A stretch of DNA of 64,000 nucleotides from positions 3,808,001 to 3,872,000 of the forward strand of contig OZ223209.1 of the NCBI GenBank assembly GCA_965140415.1, read 5' to 3'. The first letter of the stretch is position 1, and every line of letters starts with the position of its first letter. This DNA is from Myxococcota bacterium. Lineage in GTDB: Bacteria; Myxococcota_A; SURF-8. Under the pieces are notes generated by a model that was not told where the DNA came from, made no database searches, and saw only the letters and a list, made by a program, of their open reading frames with translations. Positions 1,052 to 12,773 of the stretch are shown piece after piece. The translations under genes and the position numbers were made by a program.

Positions 1052-1119
1052 CAGCCTCGATTTTAAAAAGGTCCTCACCATCGGTAGGATGTTTATCAAA
1101 ACTCCTTAATAGGAGGTGA
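1052..1119 (+). promoter_or_regulatory. Promoter/RBS region duplicated at 2221-2291
   Basis: cagcctc...caccatcggtaggatg...aggaggtg aligns colinearly with cagcctc...cacaatcggtagaatg...aggaggta; -10-like TAGGAT/TAGAAT and AGGAGG RBS. Confidence 0.65.
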
Positions 1120-1443
1120 ATGATGTCAGAATACCGCAGCATAAAGAGTCAGGATAAATTGGACAGGATCATGAAAGATCTGTTTGGATTCATTCGGGAG
1201 GAACCCGATGAGGAATTCCGCCAGAATCTCGTATCGTGGATTATTCGGAAATTAGCATTTGCATTTGGAATAGAACTTAAATTTCAGCCGGAATTGGATA
1301 TCGATAAATTAAACAACCACCTTCGATTTGCGTACTGGAAATTTAGGGAACTCAAGGACGATCCCAAATACAGGGACAGGGCATTCTATTTATTGAATGA
1401 ATTTCTCGACGATCTACTTAAATTCCCTTCGAAAACCAAATGA
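1120..1443 (+). CDS. Small helical hypothetical protein, paralog 1
   Basis: AGGAGG RBS; full-length similarity to 2292-2609 (KLD..LF.FI..EPD, VSW.I..AF.FG, PELD.DK...HLR.A.W.F.EL, AF.L..EFL.DLL). Confidence 0.85.
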   Translation: MMSEYRSIKSQDKLDRIMKDLFGFIREEPDEEFRQNLVSWIIRKLAFAFGIELKFQPELDIDKLNNHLRFAYWKFRELKDDPKYRDRAFYLLNEFLDDLLKFPSKTK

Positions 1444-1616: not shown

Positions 1617-1708
1617 TGTTTTATCCTCCTGAAATTAACTCCTATTATGTCTACACAGGATTTGGGATAGTTAAAAAGATGGCGACCCCTGGATTTGGCT
1701 CTATACTT

Positions 1709-2040
1709 ATCTCCTGGCTTTTATTAGGACTGGATTTCAACGACATGATGACGGCGAAAGTCGAATCATATTCTCCTGGCACTTATCAGGAGGGGATTAC
1801 AACGATGTGGAGGGTGTAAAGCGTCACCATGAGTTCTACCGGGATGTCAGGAGTGGATTACAACGAAATAGAAAAAGCCGTTTCAAGCGGATAAGTCAAT
1901 TACCACGACTTGGATTATGTTCAATTGCCCGCTCACCGGCATTCTCCTGGCACCCGGTAGAACTGGAATTCTGCCACAAAATATTTCTTCCTGTAGCAGC
2001 TACTTTACTCCTGCGTCATTGCAGGAGGGGATTACAACGA
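1709..2040 (+). ncRNA. Candidate structured repeat RNA: degenerate CTCCTG-loop-CAGGAG stems followed by GGATTACAACGA, ~62-nt spacing
   Basis: Motif copies end at 1743, 1805, 1866 and 2040, with degenerate units near 1893-1918 and 1942-1970; G-U pairs favour the + strand; TATACT at 1702-1707; terminator at 2077-2111. Confidence 0.65.
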
Positions 2041-2076
2041 GTTAGATATGAAAACTTTAACGGCCAGAAAATCATA

Positions 2077-2111
2077 GAAAGCCCGGATGAATACTCCGGG
2101 CTTTCGCTTTT
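2077..2111 (+). terminator. Rho-independent terminator
   Basis: GAAAGCCCGGA-tgaatac-TCCGGGCTTTC perfect 11-bp stem followed by GCTTTT. Confidence 0.85.
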
Positions 2112-3041: not shown

Positions 3042-3227
3042 ATGGCGAAAATAGTTTATCAAAAGCAAGCCGAATCTGAGAAAGAGTTTGAGGTTGAGTG
3101 GTTTGAAAGCGTTGCTGAGGATCTAGCTCCGATTGAGTGCCTATCTGATCTTCCCTTTCATCCTGAAATTATCAAGTTTCTAGCCTCCATGGTTGCCGAA
3201 GGCCTTGATTCGAGAGATTCACGATGA
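3042..3227 (+). CDS. Small acidic protein (61 aa) translationally coupled to the large serine recombinase
   Basis: GGGAG RBS before ATG 3042; stop overlaps the recombinase start (ATGA). The ORF-track start at 2796 runs through the structured leader. Confidence 0.6.
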   Translation: MAKIVYQKQAESEKEFEVEWFESVAEDLAPIECLSDLPFHPEIIKFLASMVAEGLDSRDSR

Positions 3228-5308
3228 CAGGGACTTCCGCAAAATATACCGCCTTTTACGCTCGAAGAACCCGTGAGGATCCGGAGAATGAATCCTCTTC
3301 AGTGGAAAATCAGTGTTCACGTTTCAAGGAATTACAGGCAAAGCAAGGATGGGCAGGACGGATATTTGCAGAAAAGGGCCGCCATCGAAGTGGTGAATGG
3401 TCAACCGATAAGCGTCCCGCTTTAAAAGACCTTCTTGATGAAATTAAGAAAGGAAACGTTGAGCGGCTTGTGGTGCGTGATCTTGATCGGCTCGGGCGTG
3501 GACCTATCTTAATGCTAATCTGCGAAGATCTAGCAAAAGCAAATGTAGAACTATGGGATTTCTCAGGCAATGTAGAATACCGGACAGCCGCCGGTGAATT
3601 AGGATTGGCCGTACAAGCATCGGTAGGCCGTTTTGAAGTCCGCAGAACCGGTGAACGTATCAGGGAATCCAAACGGGCTTATTGGAAAAAAGGAATCCAT
3701 ATTGGTCCCGCTCCATTTGGATACACATCTCAGTCCCGCATATACCGGGAACTTGTTGAGCAGGGTGTCAATAAAGCTGAGGCCAAAGCCAAAGCTCACC
3801 AAGAGATGCCTGAGGCTCCCGGCATTCGTATAGAACCAGACGAGGCAAGGGTCGTTCGAATGATCTTCGAAATGTATGTCAACGAGGAACTGGGTACAAA
3901 ACGGGTAGCTCAGAACCTGAATTCACGAGGTTTACTGAAACGGGGCCGAAACTGGACCCAGCAAGCTGTCCGGAAAATCTTGGTTGACCCGAAGATGGCT
4001 GGCTGGGCTACGTTCGATGATGAGTCCTATCAGGCCAGGCAACGGAATTGTCAGAAACCGATCCATAAACAACAGCGTCTGGATGCAGCCCATGAGGCAA
4101 TCGTTGACCGGAACATATGGCAAAGGGCTCAAAGAACTTTGGAGGACCGAGGTAAGCAGGTTCACGCCAACAGGTCCAAAGGTCGGATATATCCCCTGAC
4201 CGGTGCTATCCAATGCATCAACGGACACAGAATGAAAGGAAAAGCCTCTGGCAGCGGCAAATTGGCGTACTATACCTGCCACAAGCGGTCAGATGTCGGT
4301 TCCGATCCCGATTCCGGCGGCTGCAACGCTCATAGAATCAATGTCAACAGGGCTGAGTCAGCCGTTCTGGAAGTGCTGGACCAGATCTTATCGTCACCCG
4401 AAAAGGTGGTTGAGGTCTACGAGGCCACCAAAAGAAGGATGCAGAAAGAAGCCCCCGTCAGGAAACGTGAATTGGCTGCACTGGACCGGAAAGTTGCGCG
4501 ACTTGAAAAAGAACGGGAAGGAGTGTTCCAGGCTTTTCGTAATCCCGACCTGTCTCCTGATCAACACACGGTCATTGCTGATAGGGTGGCCGAGTTGAAC
4601 CTGAAGATACGGGATATGCAGGATAAGCGGACACAATTGGAATCCAAGGTTGTCCTGATCAGGGTTCCGAAAATGAATTATCATGATGTGGCCGCTTATA
4701 TGAACGCCATCAAAAAAGAGTTGGAAGCCAGCCCGAGGCGTTTTAAGAAGTTGATCACGTTACTGCGACATCACCACGATCTGAAGATCACCGTTCTCGA
4801 TTCATACAGAGTAAGGGTTTCCATGAATTTCTCACCTGAAGGTATGGATGCCAAAACCATCACCGCTAAAGTCCAGCCTTCGTTTCCATTCACCATCGAA
4901 GAGGAAGGTGGGGCAAGGCCGCTGACGAATGAGGAATGGGCTGCTCGGGAGAACGAAAAGGGCCATTATTGCCAGTGTGGATGTGGACAAAAAATTACGG
5001 TTTTACCGAGGCATAGAGCTTCAACTGTTGGGATTCCGAAATTCATCCGCGGCAGCGGACATTGGAAATGTGACATGACCGGTTTTGTGGAACAACTGAA
5101 CCGGGAAGGCTATTTGACCATCGGCCAAGTAGCAAAAGAACTGGGTATCGGGGAAACCACTCTCAGAAGGTATGAGAAACGGGGGGTGATCATGCCTGAA
5201 TACCGAGAATGGGGGAAACGTTGGCCTATGAGGGTGTACGGAAAAGAGGACTTGGGCAAGCTGAAAAAGGCAATGGAGAAGGCGGGGTTCAGGTATTCAA
5301 CACCCTGA
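3224..5308 (+). CDS. Large serine recombinase (resolvase + recombinase + Zn-ribbon + coiled coil) with C-terminal CxCGCG motif and MerR-like HTH
   Basis: YARRT, SG...KRPAL, VVRDLDRLGR, GPAPFGY, HEAIVD..IW, LTGAIQC..GHRM, YYTC; tail CQCGCG...FIRGSGH and LTIGQVAKELGIGETTLRRYEKRG. Confidence 0.92.
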   Translation: MTGTSAKYTAFYARRTREDPENESSSVENQCSRFKELQAKQGWAGRIFAEKGRHRSGEWSTDKRPALKDLLDEIKKGNVERLVVRDLDRLGRGPILMLICEDLAKANVELWDFSGNVEYRTAAGELGLAVQASVGRFEVRRTGERIRESKRAYWKKGIHIGPAPFGYTSQSRIYRELVEQGVNKAEAKAKAHQEMPEAPGIRIEPDEARVVRMIFEMYVNEELGTKRVAQNLNSRGLLKRGRNWTQQAVRKILVDPKMAGWATFDDESYQARQRNCQKPIHKQQRLDAAHEAIVDRNIWQRAQRTLEDRGKQVHANRSKGRIYPLTGAIQCINGHRMKGKASGSGKLAYYTCHKRSDVGSDPDSGGCNAHRINVNRAESAVLEVLDQILSSPEKVVEVYEATKRRMQKEAPVRKRELAALDRKVARLEKEREGVFQAFRNPDLSPDQHTVIADRVAELNLKIRDMQDKRTQLESKVVLIRVPKMNYHDVAAYMNAIKKELEASPRRFKKLITLLRHHHDLKITVLDSYRVRVSMNFSPEGMDAKTITAKVQPSFPFTIEEEGGARPLTNEEWAARENEKGHYCQCGCGQKITVLPRHRASTVGIPKFIRGSGHWKCDMTGFVEQLNREGYLTIGQVAKELGIGETTLRRYEKRGVIMPEYREWGKRWPMRVYGKEDLGKLKKAMEKAGFRYSTP

Positions 5309-5310
5309 TA

Positions 5311-5784
5311 TCACAACGCGAGATTCATATCTATAGGTATTCCCGCAGCTTTAATTTCTCTTGCCAATTGAAGTTTCCATGCCCCGCTATTATCCAACTG
5401 AATATATAAAACCCCACTATAGTCAGAGGGGATTTCAACATTTTCCTCATATAGGGCACAAACTCGTTTTCTTCCCAACCTACCGATAAAATATCCGAGT
5501 TCGAATGTTACGTTTTGTCTTGCGCTAGAAGAAATAGAATCATCATCTGCACTTACTGGTTTACCAATATCATCTGCTGTAAGAAGCACCACTGCAAATC
5601 CAAACGCCTTTTCGAGATAGTTCTTTGTGAGTAAATCCCACTGTGAAATATCATCGCTATCTATCGGTCTACTTCGAAGTAGGGCATTTCCTTTGTCAAT
5701 TTGTTGTCTAATCAGCTCGATACCTTTTTCTGGTGGAACTTGTGGAGAACCCGTTACCAAAGGAGCCTTACTTTTCTTTGTCAT
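5311..5784 (-). pseudogene. TIR-like nucleotide-binding protein (PF10137/CAP12-type) with in-frame internal deletion
   Basis: GFAVVLLTADD, ARQNVTFELGYFIGRLGRKRV and EIPSDYSGVLYI present; the VFIVHG...TIIEK first half of the domain is absent. Confidence 0.75.
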
Positions 5785-5959: not shown

Positions 5960-8335
5960 TTACCACCTTACACAACGGACCAGGGTAGAGCTGTAAATAT
6001 TGAATGTATTGATATAGCCATTACGGTAGTATGAGCACCATGCTAAATCATCATCGTCAGCAATTAAACTCGACGACCAATAATATCCACAAGAACCTAG
6101 TAGACTACTTGGCCAATAACAACCATGGGCAGGACCATCATCTAACGAACAACCATCACATGAACTACTCCTACACTGCGGTTCCCTACAGAATTCTGGA
6201 AATTGGTAAATGTTGCAATCACCTCCAGACTCTGTTGCAGAACACCCACGTATCAAAGAACGCAATTCTGAAATAGAGGGCAGATACCAATCATCATATC
6301 CATCTAACGTCAAGCTTCTACAATATTTATCAGCTTCTTCCCAATACATTGGGATTGACGAGGGTGGGTCCTCCCAATACAAACCTGTATTTGAATCATA
6401 CCATGATCCATTGCTAGACAGACATTCATCACCGCTACACTCATCACTTCCACATTCTTCGTCTTTGTGATTAGGGTTCCCACAGTTGTCGTAGCACCAG
6501 ACATCGCTATTATAACAATCCTTGCTGGCACAGTCGTCCGTCACTCGGCACTCATTACATTCTTCTCCGCTACACCCATCACTTCCACATTCTTCGTCTA
6601 TGTAAGTAAGGTTACCGCAATTGTCATAGCAGTAGACATCGCCAATCACACATTTCCTGCTGGCACAGCTGTTGGTTACCTGACATCCGGTACATTCATC
6701 CACGCTACAACTATAAATTCCACATTCTTTGTCTTTGTGATTAGGGTTCCCACAGTTGTCGTAGCACCAGACATCGCCATCGGAACATTCCCTGCTGGCA
6801 CAATAATCACTTACCATACAGTAGGCACATACTCCTTCCCGGCACTCCCATCCATAATTACAGTGACTATCTTCACAACATTCATGGCAAAAATGATCGT
6901 AGTCAATACAACATTGCTGGCCATTTACACAATCGTAATCACTCTGGCAGACTTCATCTGGCTGTAAACTGGATAATGGCACATCTATTTCGTCCAAGAT
7001 TGAAGTTGTAGCCACATCGTATGCTCCTGCAAATTGGTCAAATATCAGTGGTAAAATTTCCACGATGTTTTTGAATTTTGACAAGACTTCACACATGCCT
7101 ACCGTGGCACCATCGCAAACCAAAGTTGTAGCACATAAAAACATATCGAGGGAGAGATCCAAACCATCATCAGCCACTGATTTAAACTTTTCAGCTATAT
7201 ATGGATCTGTTTTGTAAATTAAATCCATTTTGTCCAACAGAACAGATGATCGCTGAACGAATGTCGCCTTCACTGCGAGTTCCACACATTCATGAATAGT
7301 GCCTGTCAATGAAACCATTATAGTGCCCATCAACTCTAACGTATCGGCAAGCATGAGCCTTGAATAAATTTCGGGAGAAATATGATATGCAGAGAATATG
7401 TCTTGTATTTTTGTATAGTAAGCAATTCCACCTATCGGACCAAGAAAAGCCAACTTAAAGTACGATCCCTCAAAAATTAGCTTATCACTTTCGAAATAAG
7501 GTAATGTTATTGTCTCGCTGTAAGGCGGTGTGATATTACTAATATCCCAAACAGTTTGATTGTCTGAAAACATCTCAACCCAATTCACCCAGGAAAGAAC
7601 AGATTCTCGTGGTGCAAGTATCACTACCTTCTGTTGATCCTGAAACAGGCATGCCGCATAACGATATTTCTTGTTAGAGAATTCGTAACGAATTGTGTTT
7701 GCATCCCTTGTTTCGGTAACATCCACTCCGATTGAAGATGAATATCCATTATTACTCTTCATATATACATTTTGGGTATCCAGTTCTCTACGCTCTTCTG
7801 TAAGAGCTAAATAGACACTTAGACTATCTGTAAAGTCATCGAGATATTGCGCACCCCCAGTAGCAGCCATTATGCGTTCAGCATTAACATAGAGCAAATT
7901 GGTTTTATCAACCTCTCCATTGCTGCTTCTGTGAAATAATCCAACAAGTTGATTTGACGGAGCCGATAGGTCGGCACTTAGTCTATGTTCTTCTCCTTTT
8001 GATAATATGTACCATCCTTCGCCGCATTCGAGTCCATTCTGTGAAAAGTAACAATTGCCATTGTTTTCATTCATGGGGGAAATGCATACGCCATTTTTGC
8101 AAACTTTGTTAGAATCAGCACAGTCGCGTAGAAATCCCCACTCATCATTTTGGCATAATAGTATTTCTGTTCCACTGCACTGCCGATCATATTCCTTGCA
8201 GGCAGGATGAATGTAGATTGGTGGCTCATCATTGCTTTCCGAAATTTCTCCACCGCAAGATGAAATCAGAAGGGAAAGGAAAGAAAAAAAGATGCAAAAA
8301 AGAACAATAGAGAAATGTTTGGAATAGGTCGTCAT
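5960..8335 (-). CDS. Cys-rich lipoprotein with three 45-aa repeats and C-terminal DUF1566 (Lcl) domain
   Basis: Lipobox LISSC; 135-bp repeats at ~6450/6585/6720; TGLYWE...WEEA..YC..L.L.GY.DW.LPSISEL...YWSSS...VRCVR. Confidence 0.85.
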   Translation of the reverse strand: MTTYSKHFSIVLFCIFFSFLSLLISSCGGEISESNDEPPIYIHPACKEYDRQCSGTEILLCQNDEWGFLRDCADSNKVCKNGVCISPMNENNGNCYFSQNGLECGEGWYILSKGEEHRLSADLSAPSNQLVGLFHRSSNGEVDKTNLLYVNAERIMAATGGAQYLDDFTDSLSVYLALTEERRELDTQNVYMKSNNGYSSSIGVDVTETRDANTIRYEFSNKKYRYAACLFQDQQKVVILAPRESVLSWVNWVEMFSDNQTVWDISNITPPYSETITLPYFESDKLIFEGSYFKLAFLGPIGGIAYYTKIQDIFSAYHISPEIYSRLMLADTLELMGTIMVSLTGTIHECVELAVKATFVQRSSVLLDKMDLIYKTDPYIAEKFKSVADDGLDLSLDMFLCATTLVCDGATVGMCEVLSKFKNIVEILPLIFDQFAGAYDVATTSILDEIDVPLSSLQPDEVCQSDYDCVNGQQCCIDYDHFCHECCEDSHCNYGWECREGVCAYCMVSDYCASRECSDGDVWCYDNCGNPNHKDKECGIYSCSVDECTGCQVTNSCASRKCVIGDVYCYDNCGNLTYIDEECGSDGCSGEECNECRVTDDCASKDCYNSDVWCYDNCGNPNHKDEECGSDECSGDECLSSNGSWYDSNTGLYWEDPPSSIPMYWEEADKYCRSLTLDGYDDWYLPSISELRSLIRGCSATESGGDCNIYQFPEFCREPQCRSSSCDGCSLDDGPAHGCYWPSSLLGSCGYYWSSSLIADDDDLAWCSYYRNGYINTFNIYSSTLVRCVRW

Positions 8336-8384: not shown

Positions 8385-8990
8385 TGCTCCCCGTTGTGTG
8401 GACTACTTGAAGAGTTAGAATCCGGGTTGAGAATGAGCCATGCGGCTCGACCGTTTCAATCGTAGCACAAATCACCTTTCCAATCATCTTTTTCGTGATA
8501 CACTTACCTCATCCGCCCGGAAGATAGGGCTTCGCTGGAGAGCGACCCGAGCGCCGGACGGGTGGACGACGGAGGGACAGACGATCAGGGTCTGTCCTTT
8601 CTTTTTTTCAGTCCCTTCGGAGTCCGTTAACGCGCCAAACTCCGGGGGTTCGGGGGCAGAGCCCCTGAGAAGAAACGCTGCCGTTCCTCTTGCGGCGTTC
8701 GATATTCAAGGCTGCTGTGCGGACGATGCGTGTTGTATTTCCTGCGCCACATCTCCGTCTTCACCTGCGCCTCGCGCAAAGTCAGGAATATCTCCATGTT
8801 CAAACGCTCGTCGCGCACCTTCGAATTGAAACTCTCGATGAAACCGTTCTGCCAGGGACTGCCCGCGTCGATATGCAGCGTGTCCGTGCCGCGCTTATGG
8901 AGCCAGTTTTCCAGCTTCTCCGCGATGAATTCCGGGCCATTGTCCGAGCGGATAAAGGCCGGATTTCCGTATTGATTGAACAGATCGTCG
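8385..8990 (-). mobile_element. IS3-family remnant: 3' part of orfB and right end
   Basis: Minus strand reads FIRSDNGPEF...SPWQNGFIESFNSKVRDE...WRRKYNTHRPHSSL; IR-like end tgctccccgttgtgtggactac at 8385. Confidence 0.85.
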
Positions 8991-9132
8991 TGACCCCCTA
9001 ACGAGAATCCAGTAATGATGTTAGACTTCAGCTAGAATTCCAAGATAGGAGGCAAGGTTATGGCGAAGCGAACGAGTATCGAAAATATCATCCGGCAGTT
9101 GCGCAAAGCGGAAGTACTGCAATCCCAAGGTC
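8991..9132 (+). mobile_element. IS3-family remnant: left end and start of orfA
   Basis: TGACCCCCTAACGAGAATCCAG end, AGGAGG RBS, MAKRTSIENIIRQLRKAEVLQSQG (IS3 orfA-like), then abrupt loss of similarity. Confidence 0.7.
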
Positions 9133-9142
9133 ATCCGCCTGC

Positions 9143-11571: not shown

Positions 11572-12773
11572 CGTCCCCCTCCGCCGGGCCTAGGCCCTCG
11601 ACCGGGGCCGCGAGTACGTGGCATCAGCCTCGAAAACAACCCACGCTTCTTTTCGATGGCTTCCGAATTGACTGAGGTAATGACGAGTATACCTTCTCTA
11701 AGCTCTTCACCGCTCACAACCGTGTTACTATCATCGGAGAGTCCCTTTGTGACCGCAACTCTTCTGGGCGGTCCTTCATTATCGAGAACGTAAATCACCC
11801 CATGATCCTTTGGATTGTCGTCTTGTTGACGATCCGGGCCACCAAGAGAAACCATCAGTGCAGAGTCAGGCACGAATAGGGCATTTTCTTCCCGATTCAC
11901 GATGAAATCGACGGTAGCGGTCATACCCGGAAGGAGAACCCCGCCTTTGTTTTCCGACTCCACAACCACGGTATAGGTCACCACGTTCGATACGGTCTGG
12001 GGTTGCAGGCGAATCTGTTCCACAGTGCCGGTAAACATCCGGTCCGGGTAAGCTGCAACTTCAAACTCGCAAGCCTGCCCGGCCTTGACTTGCCCGATGT
12101 CGCTTTCGTCCACAGCCACCTCGATCTGCATCTGAGACAAATCTTCAGCAATGATGAACAGAGTGGGCGTGCTAAGCGAAGCGGCGACGGTTTGTCCTTC
12201 TTCGATGGAACGCTCGATGACGGTCCCATCGATGGGTGAGCGAATGACCGTATAGTCAAGATTGGTTTGGGAGCGAGAAAGCGATGCTTGCGCCAAGGCC
12301 AAATCTGCCTTTGCCGTACTAAGGTTGGTTTGATATACGAGGAATTCCTCGTCGGATAGAAAGCTCTTCGCATTCAAAGGAGCATTGCGGTCGTATTCGG
12401 CTTGAGCCTGTTTCAATCTCGCCCTGGCACTGGTGACCGAAGCCTTCGCACCAAGCAACTCAGCCCTAAACAGATTTTGGTTCAAGGTGGCGAGAACCTG
12501 TCCTTTTCTGACCTGGTCGTTGTAATCCACCGAAATGGTATCGATGGTGCCCGAGACTTGTGTTCCGACATCGACCGTTCCCTTGGCTGCCAGACTTCCC
12601 GTGCTGGAAATGGTAATCGTCAGATCCCCCCGTTGAATAGTAGCGGTTTCAAAAGGTGAGTCTTCCTGCGAGGCGGAAACAGAATCGGTGTATTGGAATA
12701 TCGCAAATCCCAGTAAACATAGGCCGATAATGCCAAATAAGACCTTTTTGCGGTTTATGTTGAAAACATTCAT
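11568..12773 (-). CDS. macA: MacA-like efflux periplasmic adaptor subunit
   Basis: VDVGTQVSG.I, IRSPIDG.VI, GQTVAASLSTPTLF, VDESDIG, LPGMTA. Confidence 0.9.
   Translation of the reverse strand: MNVFNINRKKVLFGIIGLCLLGFAIFQYTDSVSASQEDSPFETATIQRGDLTITISSTGSLAAKGTVDVGTQVSGTIDTISVDYNDQVRKGQVLATLNQNLFRAELLGAKASVTSARARLKQAQAEYDRNAPLNAKSFLSDEEFLVYQTNLSTAKADLALAQASLSRSQTNLDYTVIRSPIDGTVIERSIEEGQTVAASLSTPTLFIIAEDLSQMQIEVAVDESDIGQVKAGQACEFEVAAYPDRMFTGTVEQIRLQPQTVSNVVTYTVVVESENKGGVLLPGMTATVDFIVNREENALFVPDSALMVSLGGPDRQQDDNPKDHGVIYVLDNEGPPRRVAVTKGLSDDSNTVVSGEELREGILVITSVNSEAIEKKRGLFSRLMPRTRGPGRGPRPGGGGR

Follow-up and report, generated by a model that had tools for sequence, protein, structure and literature searches.

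In the genome of a Myxococcota bacterium (assembly GCA_965140415.1), which consists of one contig, OZ223209.1, of 5,975,757 bases (5.98 Mb), we closely examined a stretch of 64,000 nucleotides (nt) at positions 3,808,001-3,872,000. This stretch is referred to as the window here, and positions are those of the window unless given for the genome. At 1706-2040 on the + strand we found a short array of interspaced hairpin repeats without cas genes, which we cautiously favour as the remnant of a CRISPR array, most likely inert in its present surroundings. The units appear to belong to the class of repeats with a hairpin and an 11-nt tail that is processed by Cas5d-type nucleases (type I-C and variants), cleavage by Cas5d itself being predicted, and the nearest relatives found for them are repeats from viral and metagenome contigs that carry type I-C-variant loci. 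The array matches repeats that stand beside cas genes elsewhere, and neither cognate cas genes in its own genome nor homologous loci in the phylum genomes searched were found. Arrays of this general kind, CRISPR-like, without cas genes and in mobile contexts, have already been described (PMC10651486; PMC11656645; bioRxiv 10.1101/2024.10.29.618823).

Repeat units and their arrangement

An initial annotation of the same DNA had pointed to a repeated motif, GGATT(A/T)CAACGA, and this was confirmed: four copies lie on the + strand within 310 nt and end at 1743, 1805, 1866 and 2040. Allowing one mismatch, the 64-kb window holds five matches against 0.36 expected, a number reached in 0 of 100 shuffles. 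The fifth match (12517-12528, - strand) lies inside what appears by eye to be an open frame. A 19-nt string of arm and tail is confined to the array, where all three of its genome-wide matches with up to three mismatches are found. The array consists of the following parts (R1 is a covariance model described below).

1706-1743, + strand: U1, degenerate unit; weak stem CTCCTGG/TTAGGAC; tail GGATTTCAACGA with one mismatch; 10.9 bits, E 1.5 with R1
1744-1767, + strand: spacer-like segment 1; unique sequence that forms a small hairpin by itself; unmatched in the genome, phages and plasmids
1768-1805, + strand: U2, intact unit; ATATT-CTCCTGG-CACTTA-TCAGGAG-G-GGATTACAAC, then GA; 5-nt flank, loop CACTTA
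1806-1832, + strand: spacer-like segment 2; unique, no match elsewhere
1833-1866, + strand (1829-1866 as a full-length unit): U3; 3' arm and tail intact (TCAGGAG-TGGATTACAACGA), 5' arm replaced by an inverted copy of part of U5
1867-1942, + strand: irregular 76-nt stretch; contains the 'unit 4' of the initial annotation (about 1891-1924); no match to R1
1943-1976, + strand (1939-1976 as a full-length unit): U5, broken unit; 5' arm TCTCCTGGCAC kept, 3' arm and tail decayed; 68% to the repeat family, 61% to U1 and U2; no match to R1
1977-2002, + strand: spacer-like segment 5; unique, A+T-rich; only chance 12-14-mers in type I-C-variant loci
2003-2040, + strand: U6, best unit; stem CTCCTGC/GCAGGAG, loop GTCATT, tail G-GGATTACAAC, then GA
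2077-2105: perfect 11-bp hairpin, possible two-way terminator

The tails ending at 1743, 1805 and 1866 are 62 and 61 nt apart, and the starts of U5 and U6 are separated by 64 nt. Between U3 and U5 there is an irregular gap of 76 nt, which puts the middle of the array (1867-1942) off-spacing. The segments between the units are unique, as annotated initially, and 27-30 nt long. A repeat finder grouped 34-nt units at 1710, 1772, 1943 and 2007 and 25-nt units around the tails; Tandem Repeats Finder reported nothing at the array. Pairwise identity among the units is 58-76% over 38 nt, with four recognisable units (U1, U2, U3 and U6) plus the broken U5. The array has a G+C content of 44.8%, compared with 52.7% for the window.

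U2 and U6 share one layout, a 7-bp stem, a 6-nt loop and the 11-nt tail G-GGATTACAAC. Compared by eye, they differ at seven of the first 15 positions and at none of the last 19. Their stems, CTCCTGG/TCAGGAG and CTCCTGC/GCAGGAG, differ by the G-U to C-G change that the initial annotation had read from the sequence. Local folding, also proposed there, was borne out for U2 (-10.3 kcal/mol, with 2.8% of 500 shuffles as good) and U6 (-13.8 kcal/mol, 1.4%) and not for U1, whose hairpin (-4.2 kcal/mol) is no better than shuffled sequence, 39.8% of shuffles folding as well. As a whole, the array folds far below shuffles on both strands (z = -4.65 on the + strand and -5.76 on the - strand); the signal is therefore due to DNA palindromes and names no strand. 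The AAGTC/GACTT stem followed by GGATTA that had been counted as a fourth unit is present, but in register it agrees with the other units at only 18-26% of positions, no more than expected by chance, and it is off the spacing.

Two features had been missed initially, namely the loss of the 3' arm and tail in U5 and the presence of inverted copies in U3 and U5. The latter (1832-1854 and 1943-1964) agree perfectly over 12 nt and at about 20 of 22 positions by eye if one indel is allowed, and a 22-nt long-range helix between them is present in the predicted folds of both strands. An origin by inversion between palindromic repeat stems was worked through by hand and did not reproduce the observed arrangement.

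A search of Rfam over 900-2900 with E values up to 10 gave no family in the array (1700-2050), the CRISPR-DR families included. A CRISPR-DR13 match outside it (2616-2656, - strand, 21.3 bits, E 3) is weak and was judged to be chance. Contigs of the DNA sequencing runs X1 and X2 are identical to the window across the array; run X3 yielded nothing. One X2 contig joins the array at 1764, just before U2, from 255 letters foreign to the window. Their start maps to 3215073-3215102 (3.215 Mb) of the same genome on the - strand, and the far end falls, by count, on a short CATAT common to both, so that either a chimera of the assembly or a variant rearranged in the sample may be involved.

Relation to type I-C-variant CRISPR repeats

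Viral and metagenome contigs were searched for two copies of GGATTACAAC spaced 45-58 nt apart. The viral collection returned nine such stretches, four of them with 3 to 12 pattern matches, and the metagenome contigs at least 117. The paired stretches are ordinary CRISPR arrays with 36-nt repeats and a period of mostly 66 nt, in which the motif always forms the last 10 nt of the repeat. One subfamily, comprising L137 and L135/L141 (two viral contigs), L154, L201, L205, L233 and L239, has 5 nt, a 6-7-bp stem (CTC...GAG), a 6-nt loop, one nucleotide and GGATTACAAC, which is the geometry of U2 and U6. In all five loci with upstream DNA (L137, L154, L201, L205 and L233) the array lies directly behind genes matching Cas_Cas5d, Cas_Csd1, Cas_Cas7 and Cas3; L239 and L135/L141 were outside this count on their upstream side. 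No Cas1, Cas2 or Cas4 was seen within the stretches examined of the subfamily loci. The cas-adjacent loci are type I-C variants, and phage variants of type I-C without Cas1 and Cas2 have been published (Al-Shayeb et al. 2020, PMC7162821).

In type I-C systems, Cas5d is described as recognising the stem at its base together with the 3' overhang, and an 11-nt 5' tag is left (PMC5965381). A stem-loop with an 11-nt 3' overhang, as in Cas5d-class repeats, is present in U2 and U6, is weak in U1 and is reduced to the tail and the 3' arm in U3. The likeness to type I-C repeats that the initial annotation had suggested therefore extends to the same geometry in arrays behind cas5d-csd1-cas7-cas3 genes.

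For the covariance model R1, six cas-linked arrays contributed one repeat each and this locus none; the search with it covered both strands of the entire window, without filters and with E up to 10. Among 14 matches, the top three were U3 (21.2 bits, E 0.0018), U6 (21.1 bits, E 0.002) and U2 (17.3 bits, E 0.024), all on the + strand; U1 ranked seventh (10.9 bits, E 1.5). U2 and U6 were aligned end to end with all seven pairs formed, and U3 was matched locally with the stem skipped. The units thus match, at low scores, the repeats of cas5d-csd1-cas7-cas3 arrays.

The cas-adjacent family itself is variable. Its repeats are unusually mixed within one array, for instance in L201 and L154, and some diverge almost as much as the units described here. 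Across the family the stems covary: six of seven pairs are changed on both sides, and 0 of 500 shuffles attain the covariation score, although the alignment had been fitted to the model and is thereby biased towards this outcome. For this family it is therefore normal that units diverge and carry one compensatory change. Compensating stems with periods of 64-69 nt were seen at L201:916-3256, L154:3632-5289 and L233:6588-7611, examples being CTCCCC/GGGGAG, CTCCTA/TAGGAG and CTTTCA/TGAGAG. Mixed repeats with compensating stems may be typical where an array has ceased to take up spacers.

Taken together, the array shares with the type I-C-variant loci (L137, L154, L201, L205, L233 and L239) the 7-bp CTC...GAG stem, the 6-nt loop, the single nucleotide, the 3'-terminal GGATTACAAC, the strand logic and the divergence of repeats within one array with compensating stem changes. 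It differs from them in the lack of cas genes, the loss of the 5' GGTGT flank, the extra GA, the period of 61-64 nt and the broken middle units.

A further array with the GGATTACAAC tail was found on a viral contig (L134:5068-7082), directly before a gene for a 503-aa Cas12f/TnpB-like protein and with an intein-split ribonucleotide reductase as its neighbour. A type V-like locus is thus served by this tail as well.

Host CRISPR-Cas system and absence of cognate cas genes

A k-mer scan of the genome revealed one true CRISPR array, at 3,775,852-3,776,830, whose 29-nt repeat recurs every 61 nt. Genes for Cas1, Cas6e, Cas5 and Cse1 adjoin it on the - strand, and the host system, whose locus at 3.776-3.783 Mb is the sole CRISPR-Cas locus of the genome, is therefore of type I-E. 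All hits for these four proteins lie at 3.777-3.783 Mb, 25-31 kb before the start of the window, in agreement with the initial statement that the window contains no cas gene. The sole Cas5 hit of the genome belongs to this locus.

A comparison of the units with the host's own repeat, as proposed initially, gave no link, since the type I-E repeat is unrelated to them in either orientation. A likeness between GGGGATTAC and GGGGAATAC of the host repeat was considered and rejected: the host cas genes are on the - strand, and by the canonical orientation of type I-E repeats the string is probably on the untranscribed strand. None of the 15 host spacers matched the island when compared with the genome.

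Cognate cas5d, cas8c/csd1 and cas7 genes were not found in the genome. The type I-C Cas7 family (PF05107) and the Cas12f-like domain (PF07282) gave no hits; Csd1 (PF09709) gave none either, a weak result in that control genomes also gave none. With 13 Cas proteins of the variant loci as queries, tblastn returned no genome hit at E 1e-3, and the window gave only chance hits. As no cognate Cas protein is present in the genome, the array is most likely inert here.

Searches in related genomes, phages and plasmids

Homologous loci, whose conservation was to bear on the initial proposal of a functional RNA, were not found. When the DNA at 1617-2290 was compared with 401 genomes of the phylum, it matched itself and one 30-nt stretch (E 7.9e-4), and the 400 other genomes held no homologue. 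Paired GGATTACAAC tails were likewise absent from these 400 genomes. Among 150 relatives, R1 gave one match (27.8 bits), a lone unit with a 2-nt loop inside a Kelch-repeat-like gene, which was classed as a false positive. With up to two mismatches, the motif pattern occurred once, with two mismatches, in each of nine other genomes among 61 relatives and formed no arrays.

The unique segments, for which matches had been sought, gave none: blastn in distant mode with 1617-2112 found no match and no protospacer in phages and plasmids, the spacer-like segments matched nothing above chance in their own genome, and in 129 viral and metagenome loci they had only chance 12-14-mers. Arm plus tail occurring twice at 38-62 nt was found in no stretch of the viral or the metagenome contigs, and the same stem occurring twice in no stretch of the viral contigs. 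The 17-nt string of arm and tail gave at least 120 stretches in the collection of genome contigs, with one match each, which is chance level.

Transcription signals

The TATACT box that had been read as a -10 element is present at 1702-1707; it lies 3 nt before U1, has no -35 partner and was not flagged by a promoter scan. On the + strand between 1400 and 1710 the scan found no promoter-like site that could mark a CRISPR leader. The terminator assigned to the 3' side exists as the perfect hairpin at 2077-2105, but on the + strand it is followed by four T only (GCTTTTAAG), and a terminator was called on the - strand alone.

Upstream of the array, on the same strand, lies a gene for a 105-aa protein, p1. 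No + strand terminator is predicted between p1 and the array, and read-through from p1 is for this reason possible. Transcription, if there is any, would then be such read-through and end at the hairpin. Overall, the initial idea of an expressed and processed RNA was not supported, with no promoter predicted and no cognate Cas nuclease in the genome.

Genomic neighbourhood

The array lies among recombinase genes and gene stumps.

266-883, - strand: short tyrosine recombinase (Pfam Phage_integrase, E 1e-31)
1120-1443, + strand: 105-aa paralog p1, no Pfam family
1386-1616, - strand: serine resolvase gene stump (Pfam Resolvase N-terminal, profile positions 1-43 of 145; about 46 homologous residues)
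2292-2609, + strand: 105-aa paralog p2, no Pfam family; four-helix AlphaFold2 model of low confidence (pLDDT 56.7)
3224-5308, + strand: large serine recombinase (Pfam Resolvase, Recombinase, Zn_ribbon_recom)

Compared with relatives of 230-650 aa, the matches of the resolvase stump end at query residues 41-46, most of them at 46. An open reading frame of 143 aa lies between p2 and the large serine recombinase, which is followed at 5311-5784 by a TIR-domain protein of the CAP12/Pycsar type. Left of the window, genome positions 3794001-3808300 (L267) encode an IS3-type transposase, a 780-aa reverse transcriptase beside a winged-helix (helix-turn-helix, HTH) protein, a D12 adenine methylase and a beta-propeller protein. 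The neighbourhood is thus an island of defence and mobile-element genes. Within the window, segments of 143-605 nt at 8385-9133 recur with 88-99% identity at 3.32, 2.17, 5.43 and 3.796 Mb and look like a small repeated element.

The segment with the tyrosine recombinase and the start of p1 is 88% identical in DNA to a second locus at 2.134-2.136 Mb. The locus at 2.136 Mb carries a third paralog, p3, and no array repeats. A HMMER profile of the 105-aa family run against 1.84 billion representatives gave five hits, four of them strong, three of these hits being, by length, apparently the paralogs of this very genome. There was no hit in 60 relatives, and a word search returned the query only. 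The family is almost confined to this genome. A joint action of the array with the 105-aa paralogs or the recombinases, as suggested initially, found no support: the p3 locus lacks repeats, the family is nearly genome-confined and the resolvase is truncated.

All three paralogs are preceded by a conserved CAC(C/A)ATCGGTA...AGGAGGT (window 1076-1122 and 2246-2294; L263 around 6286-6340), and their upstream regions resemble each other by eye. Judged from this likeness, a foreign fragment of roughly 640 bp, reaching from the resolvase stump to the hairpin, would seem to be placed between two tandem p modules.

Interpretation of the array as a remnant

We infer that the array is of foreign origin. 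A foreign CRISPR locus, or a mobile element carrying one, would have entered the lineage, its cas genes would have been lost by recombination, and the array would have been broken up in the recombinase-rich island. What is left would be inert, with no protein of the genome able to cut or load such an RNA. Several signs are those of a relic: U3 has no 5' arm, U5 has neither 3' arm nor tail, the middle is irregular, the neighbouring resolvase is truncated, the G+C content is low and no promoter is predicted. Like orphan CRISPR arrays, the locus has interspaced direct repeats with spacers that are all unique, lacks cas genes beside it and carries a repeat that is foreign to the CRISPR-Cas type of its own genome. 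It differs from them in having only four recognisable units, no evident leader or promoter and a position embedded among recombinase genes and gene stumps.

A number of observations weigh against this interpretation. The pattern of change between U2 and U6, which may predate the loss of the cas genes, looks like selection and not like neutral decay. The array conforms only in part to the generic definition of a CRISPR array, for which a unit-to-unit identity of 58-76% is low. The family was retrieved by its tail, so the shared tail is given by construction; independent of the tail search are the position of the tail in the repeat, the geometry of stem and loop and the cas neighbourhood. The units score 17-21 bits, compared with 28-55 for most cas-adjacent repeats and 18-24 for five degenerate ones. 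Their period is 61-64 nt instead of 66 nt, and the GA after the tail, kept in four of four units, is not a feature of the family. The GGATTACAAC tail also occurs in the L134 array adjoining a Cas12f-like gene, and the assignment to type I-C is therefore not exclusive. No array with the same stem or with the same arm and tail was present in the collections scanned, so no donor was identified. Finally, the hairpin right after the last unit would be more expected of a purpose-built transcription unit.

Alternative explanations

The array could instead be a working cas-less array of a mobile element, that is, a Racr-like decoy, a Cracr-like regulator or a mini-array borrowing a type I-C-variant system in trans, which we regard as a serious if rather unlikely alternative. 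Its lack of cas genes and its place in an island of defence and mobile-element genes (recombinases, IS3 transposase, reverse transcriptase, methylase and TIR protein) would suit this view. It would also account for U2 and U6 keeping the stem, through a compensatory change, and a perfect tail, with differing loops and flanks, and for the hairpin after the last unit. On the other hand, no promoter is predicted, the middle units are broken, and no related locus among 401 phylum genomes attests conservation. Same-tail arrays are missing from the 400 genomes of the phylum, and the 150 relatives gave only the one false hit.

The closest parallel is RacrIC1 behind acrIC5 (Camara-Wilpert et al. 2023, PMC10651486), described as a repeat mimic without cas genes on a mobile element, with a type I-C-like hairpin and overhang and a small gene upstream. 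The orphan p1 upstream on the same strand, with no terminator in between, recalls this acrIC5-racrIC1 operon. In contrast to RacrIC1, there are several interspaced units here instead of one, the host repeat is not copied, no promoter lies directly upstream and no known acr or aca gene is nearby, as judged from Pfam with no dedicated Acr library searched. By the same Pfam comparison, again with neither PADLOC nor a dedicated Acr library searched, neither p1 nor p2 is a known Acr or Aca protein, and near p3 there are no repeats. Since the host repeat is not copied and there is no promoter, the array is not a Racr in the strict sense. Racrs and viral mini-arrays are described as copying the repeat of the host (PMC11656645), whereas the host here has a type I-E system with an unrelated repeat. 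Those mini-arrays are likewise short arrays on mobile elements that need Cas proteins in trans; they carry host-identical repeats and spacers directed at related viruses, in contrast to the foreign repeat here and the lack of any protospacer in the phage and plasmid search.

Cracr arrays (Liu et al., bioRxiv 10.1101/2024.10.29.618823) are closer in form, being multiplexed and without cas genes, with degenerate repeats and shorter spacer-like parts, type I-C cases among them. They are defined by a spacer-like part that matches a cas or toxin promoter of the target locus over at least 9 bp proximal to the protospacer-adjacent motif. The spacer-like parts here have no more than chance 12-14-mers in the 129 viral and metagenome loci; no target was found in these, and without one the array is not given this label.

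In its boldest form, this alternative would have a chromosomal element produce a multi-unit RNA that decoys or re-aims the Cas5d/Cascade of a phage-borne type I-C variant and so protects the element or the host, which we consider improbable. It draws on the variant systems found on viral contigs and on the published phage type I-C variants without Cas1 and Cas2 (PMC7162821). These systems showed no adaptation genes in the DNA examined. If it were true, divergent and covarying repeats would characterise arrays whose evolution goes on with no new spacers being acquired.

A structured non-coding RNA unrelated to CRISPR, such as a sponge or regulator with single-stranded GGAUUACAACGA between hairpins and the U3/U5 helix, appears still less probable. 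The fold well below shuffles (z = -4.65), the 22-nt long-range helix and the small hairpin of spacer-like segment 1 would suit such an RNA, but the - strand folds even better, so that the structure signal comes from DNA palindromes. Rfam gave nothing up to E 10, and no homologue was present in any collection searched, and hence no homologous loci that could show covariation. In CsrB-type sponges the GGA motifs are in loops, whereas here they are in stems and tails. The match to CRISPR repeats is the simpler explanation of the motif. The analogies to CsrB and to type III toxin-antitoxin systems drawn initially are not supported, given the empty Rfam search and the arrangement of the units. The RNAs of ToxI-like antitoxins are head-to-tail tandem repeats without spacers directly before the gene of an endoribonuclease toxin; here, the units are interspaced by 27-30 unique nt, and the downstream gene has paralogs without repeats.

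The units might also be double-stranded DNA sites for a protein, such as res-like or accessory sites of the truncated resolvase, iterons or a centromere-like partition site, with a dimer bound to the palindrome CTCCTG-N8-CAGGAG, a view to which we give marginally less weight again. The palindrome arms are constantly 8 nt apart in U1, U2 and U6, the units begin 94 bp upstream of the start of the resolvase stump, and both strands fold strongly (z = -4.65 and -5.76). However, the best-kept part is the asymmetric 12-nt tail, and all copies point in the same direction. A period of 61-62 bp over 330 bp is unlike the spacing of res sites or iterons. No such units were found upstream of nine related full-length resolvase genes, and no second inverted set was found elsewhere in the genome. 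The match to cas-adjacent repeats would have to be coincidence. One R1 match among the nine resolvase loci (16.4 bits) falls inside a coding region, at G-I-T-T codons, and is chance.

A decayed coding sequence or a chance pattern is very improbable: open reading frames of 67, 105 and 42 aa cross the region and the tail reads G-I-T-T in one frame, as it does where a relative's resolvase has GGGATTACAAC at G-I-T-T codons, but a period of 61-62 nt, not being divisible by 3, puts the units in different frames, and the frames at 1616-1819 and 1807-2124 have no Pfam family above noise. The other three resolvase relatives with a motif at that place read G-I-D-T or G-L-D-S and use different codons, and the motif count was attained in 0 of 100 shuffles. 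The GGGATTACAAC in question (L273:1301-1341, G006) lies in the full-length resolvase of a relative of the same order; it was matched by R1 and judged a coincidence.

Significance

The puzzle of a structured repeat RNA could be resolved here by searching viral and metagenome collections for its most conserved motif as a spaced pair. The units could in this way be linked to a CRISPR repeat class for which the genome has no cas genes, and none were seen in the relatives searched. Whether the array is active or a relic, the principle has already been described, and its value is that of an example. If it were active, a mimic of repeats other than those of the resident CRISPR type would point to conflict with CRISPR systems borne by incoming phages or plasmids. 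If it is a relic, as we favour, the array would record that a foreign CRISPR locus, or a mobile element with such a locus, once entered this lineage and was broken up in an island rich in recombinases.

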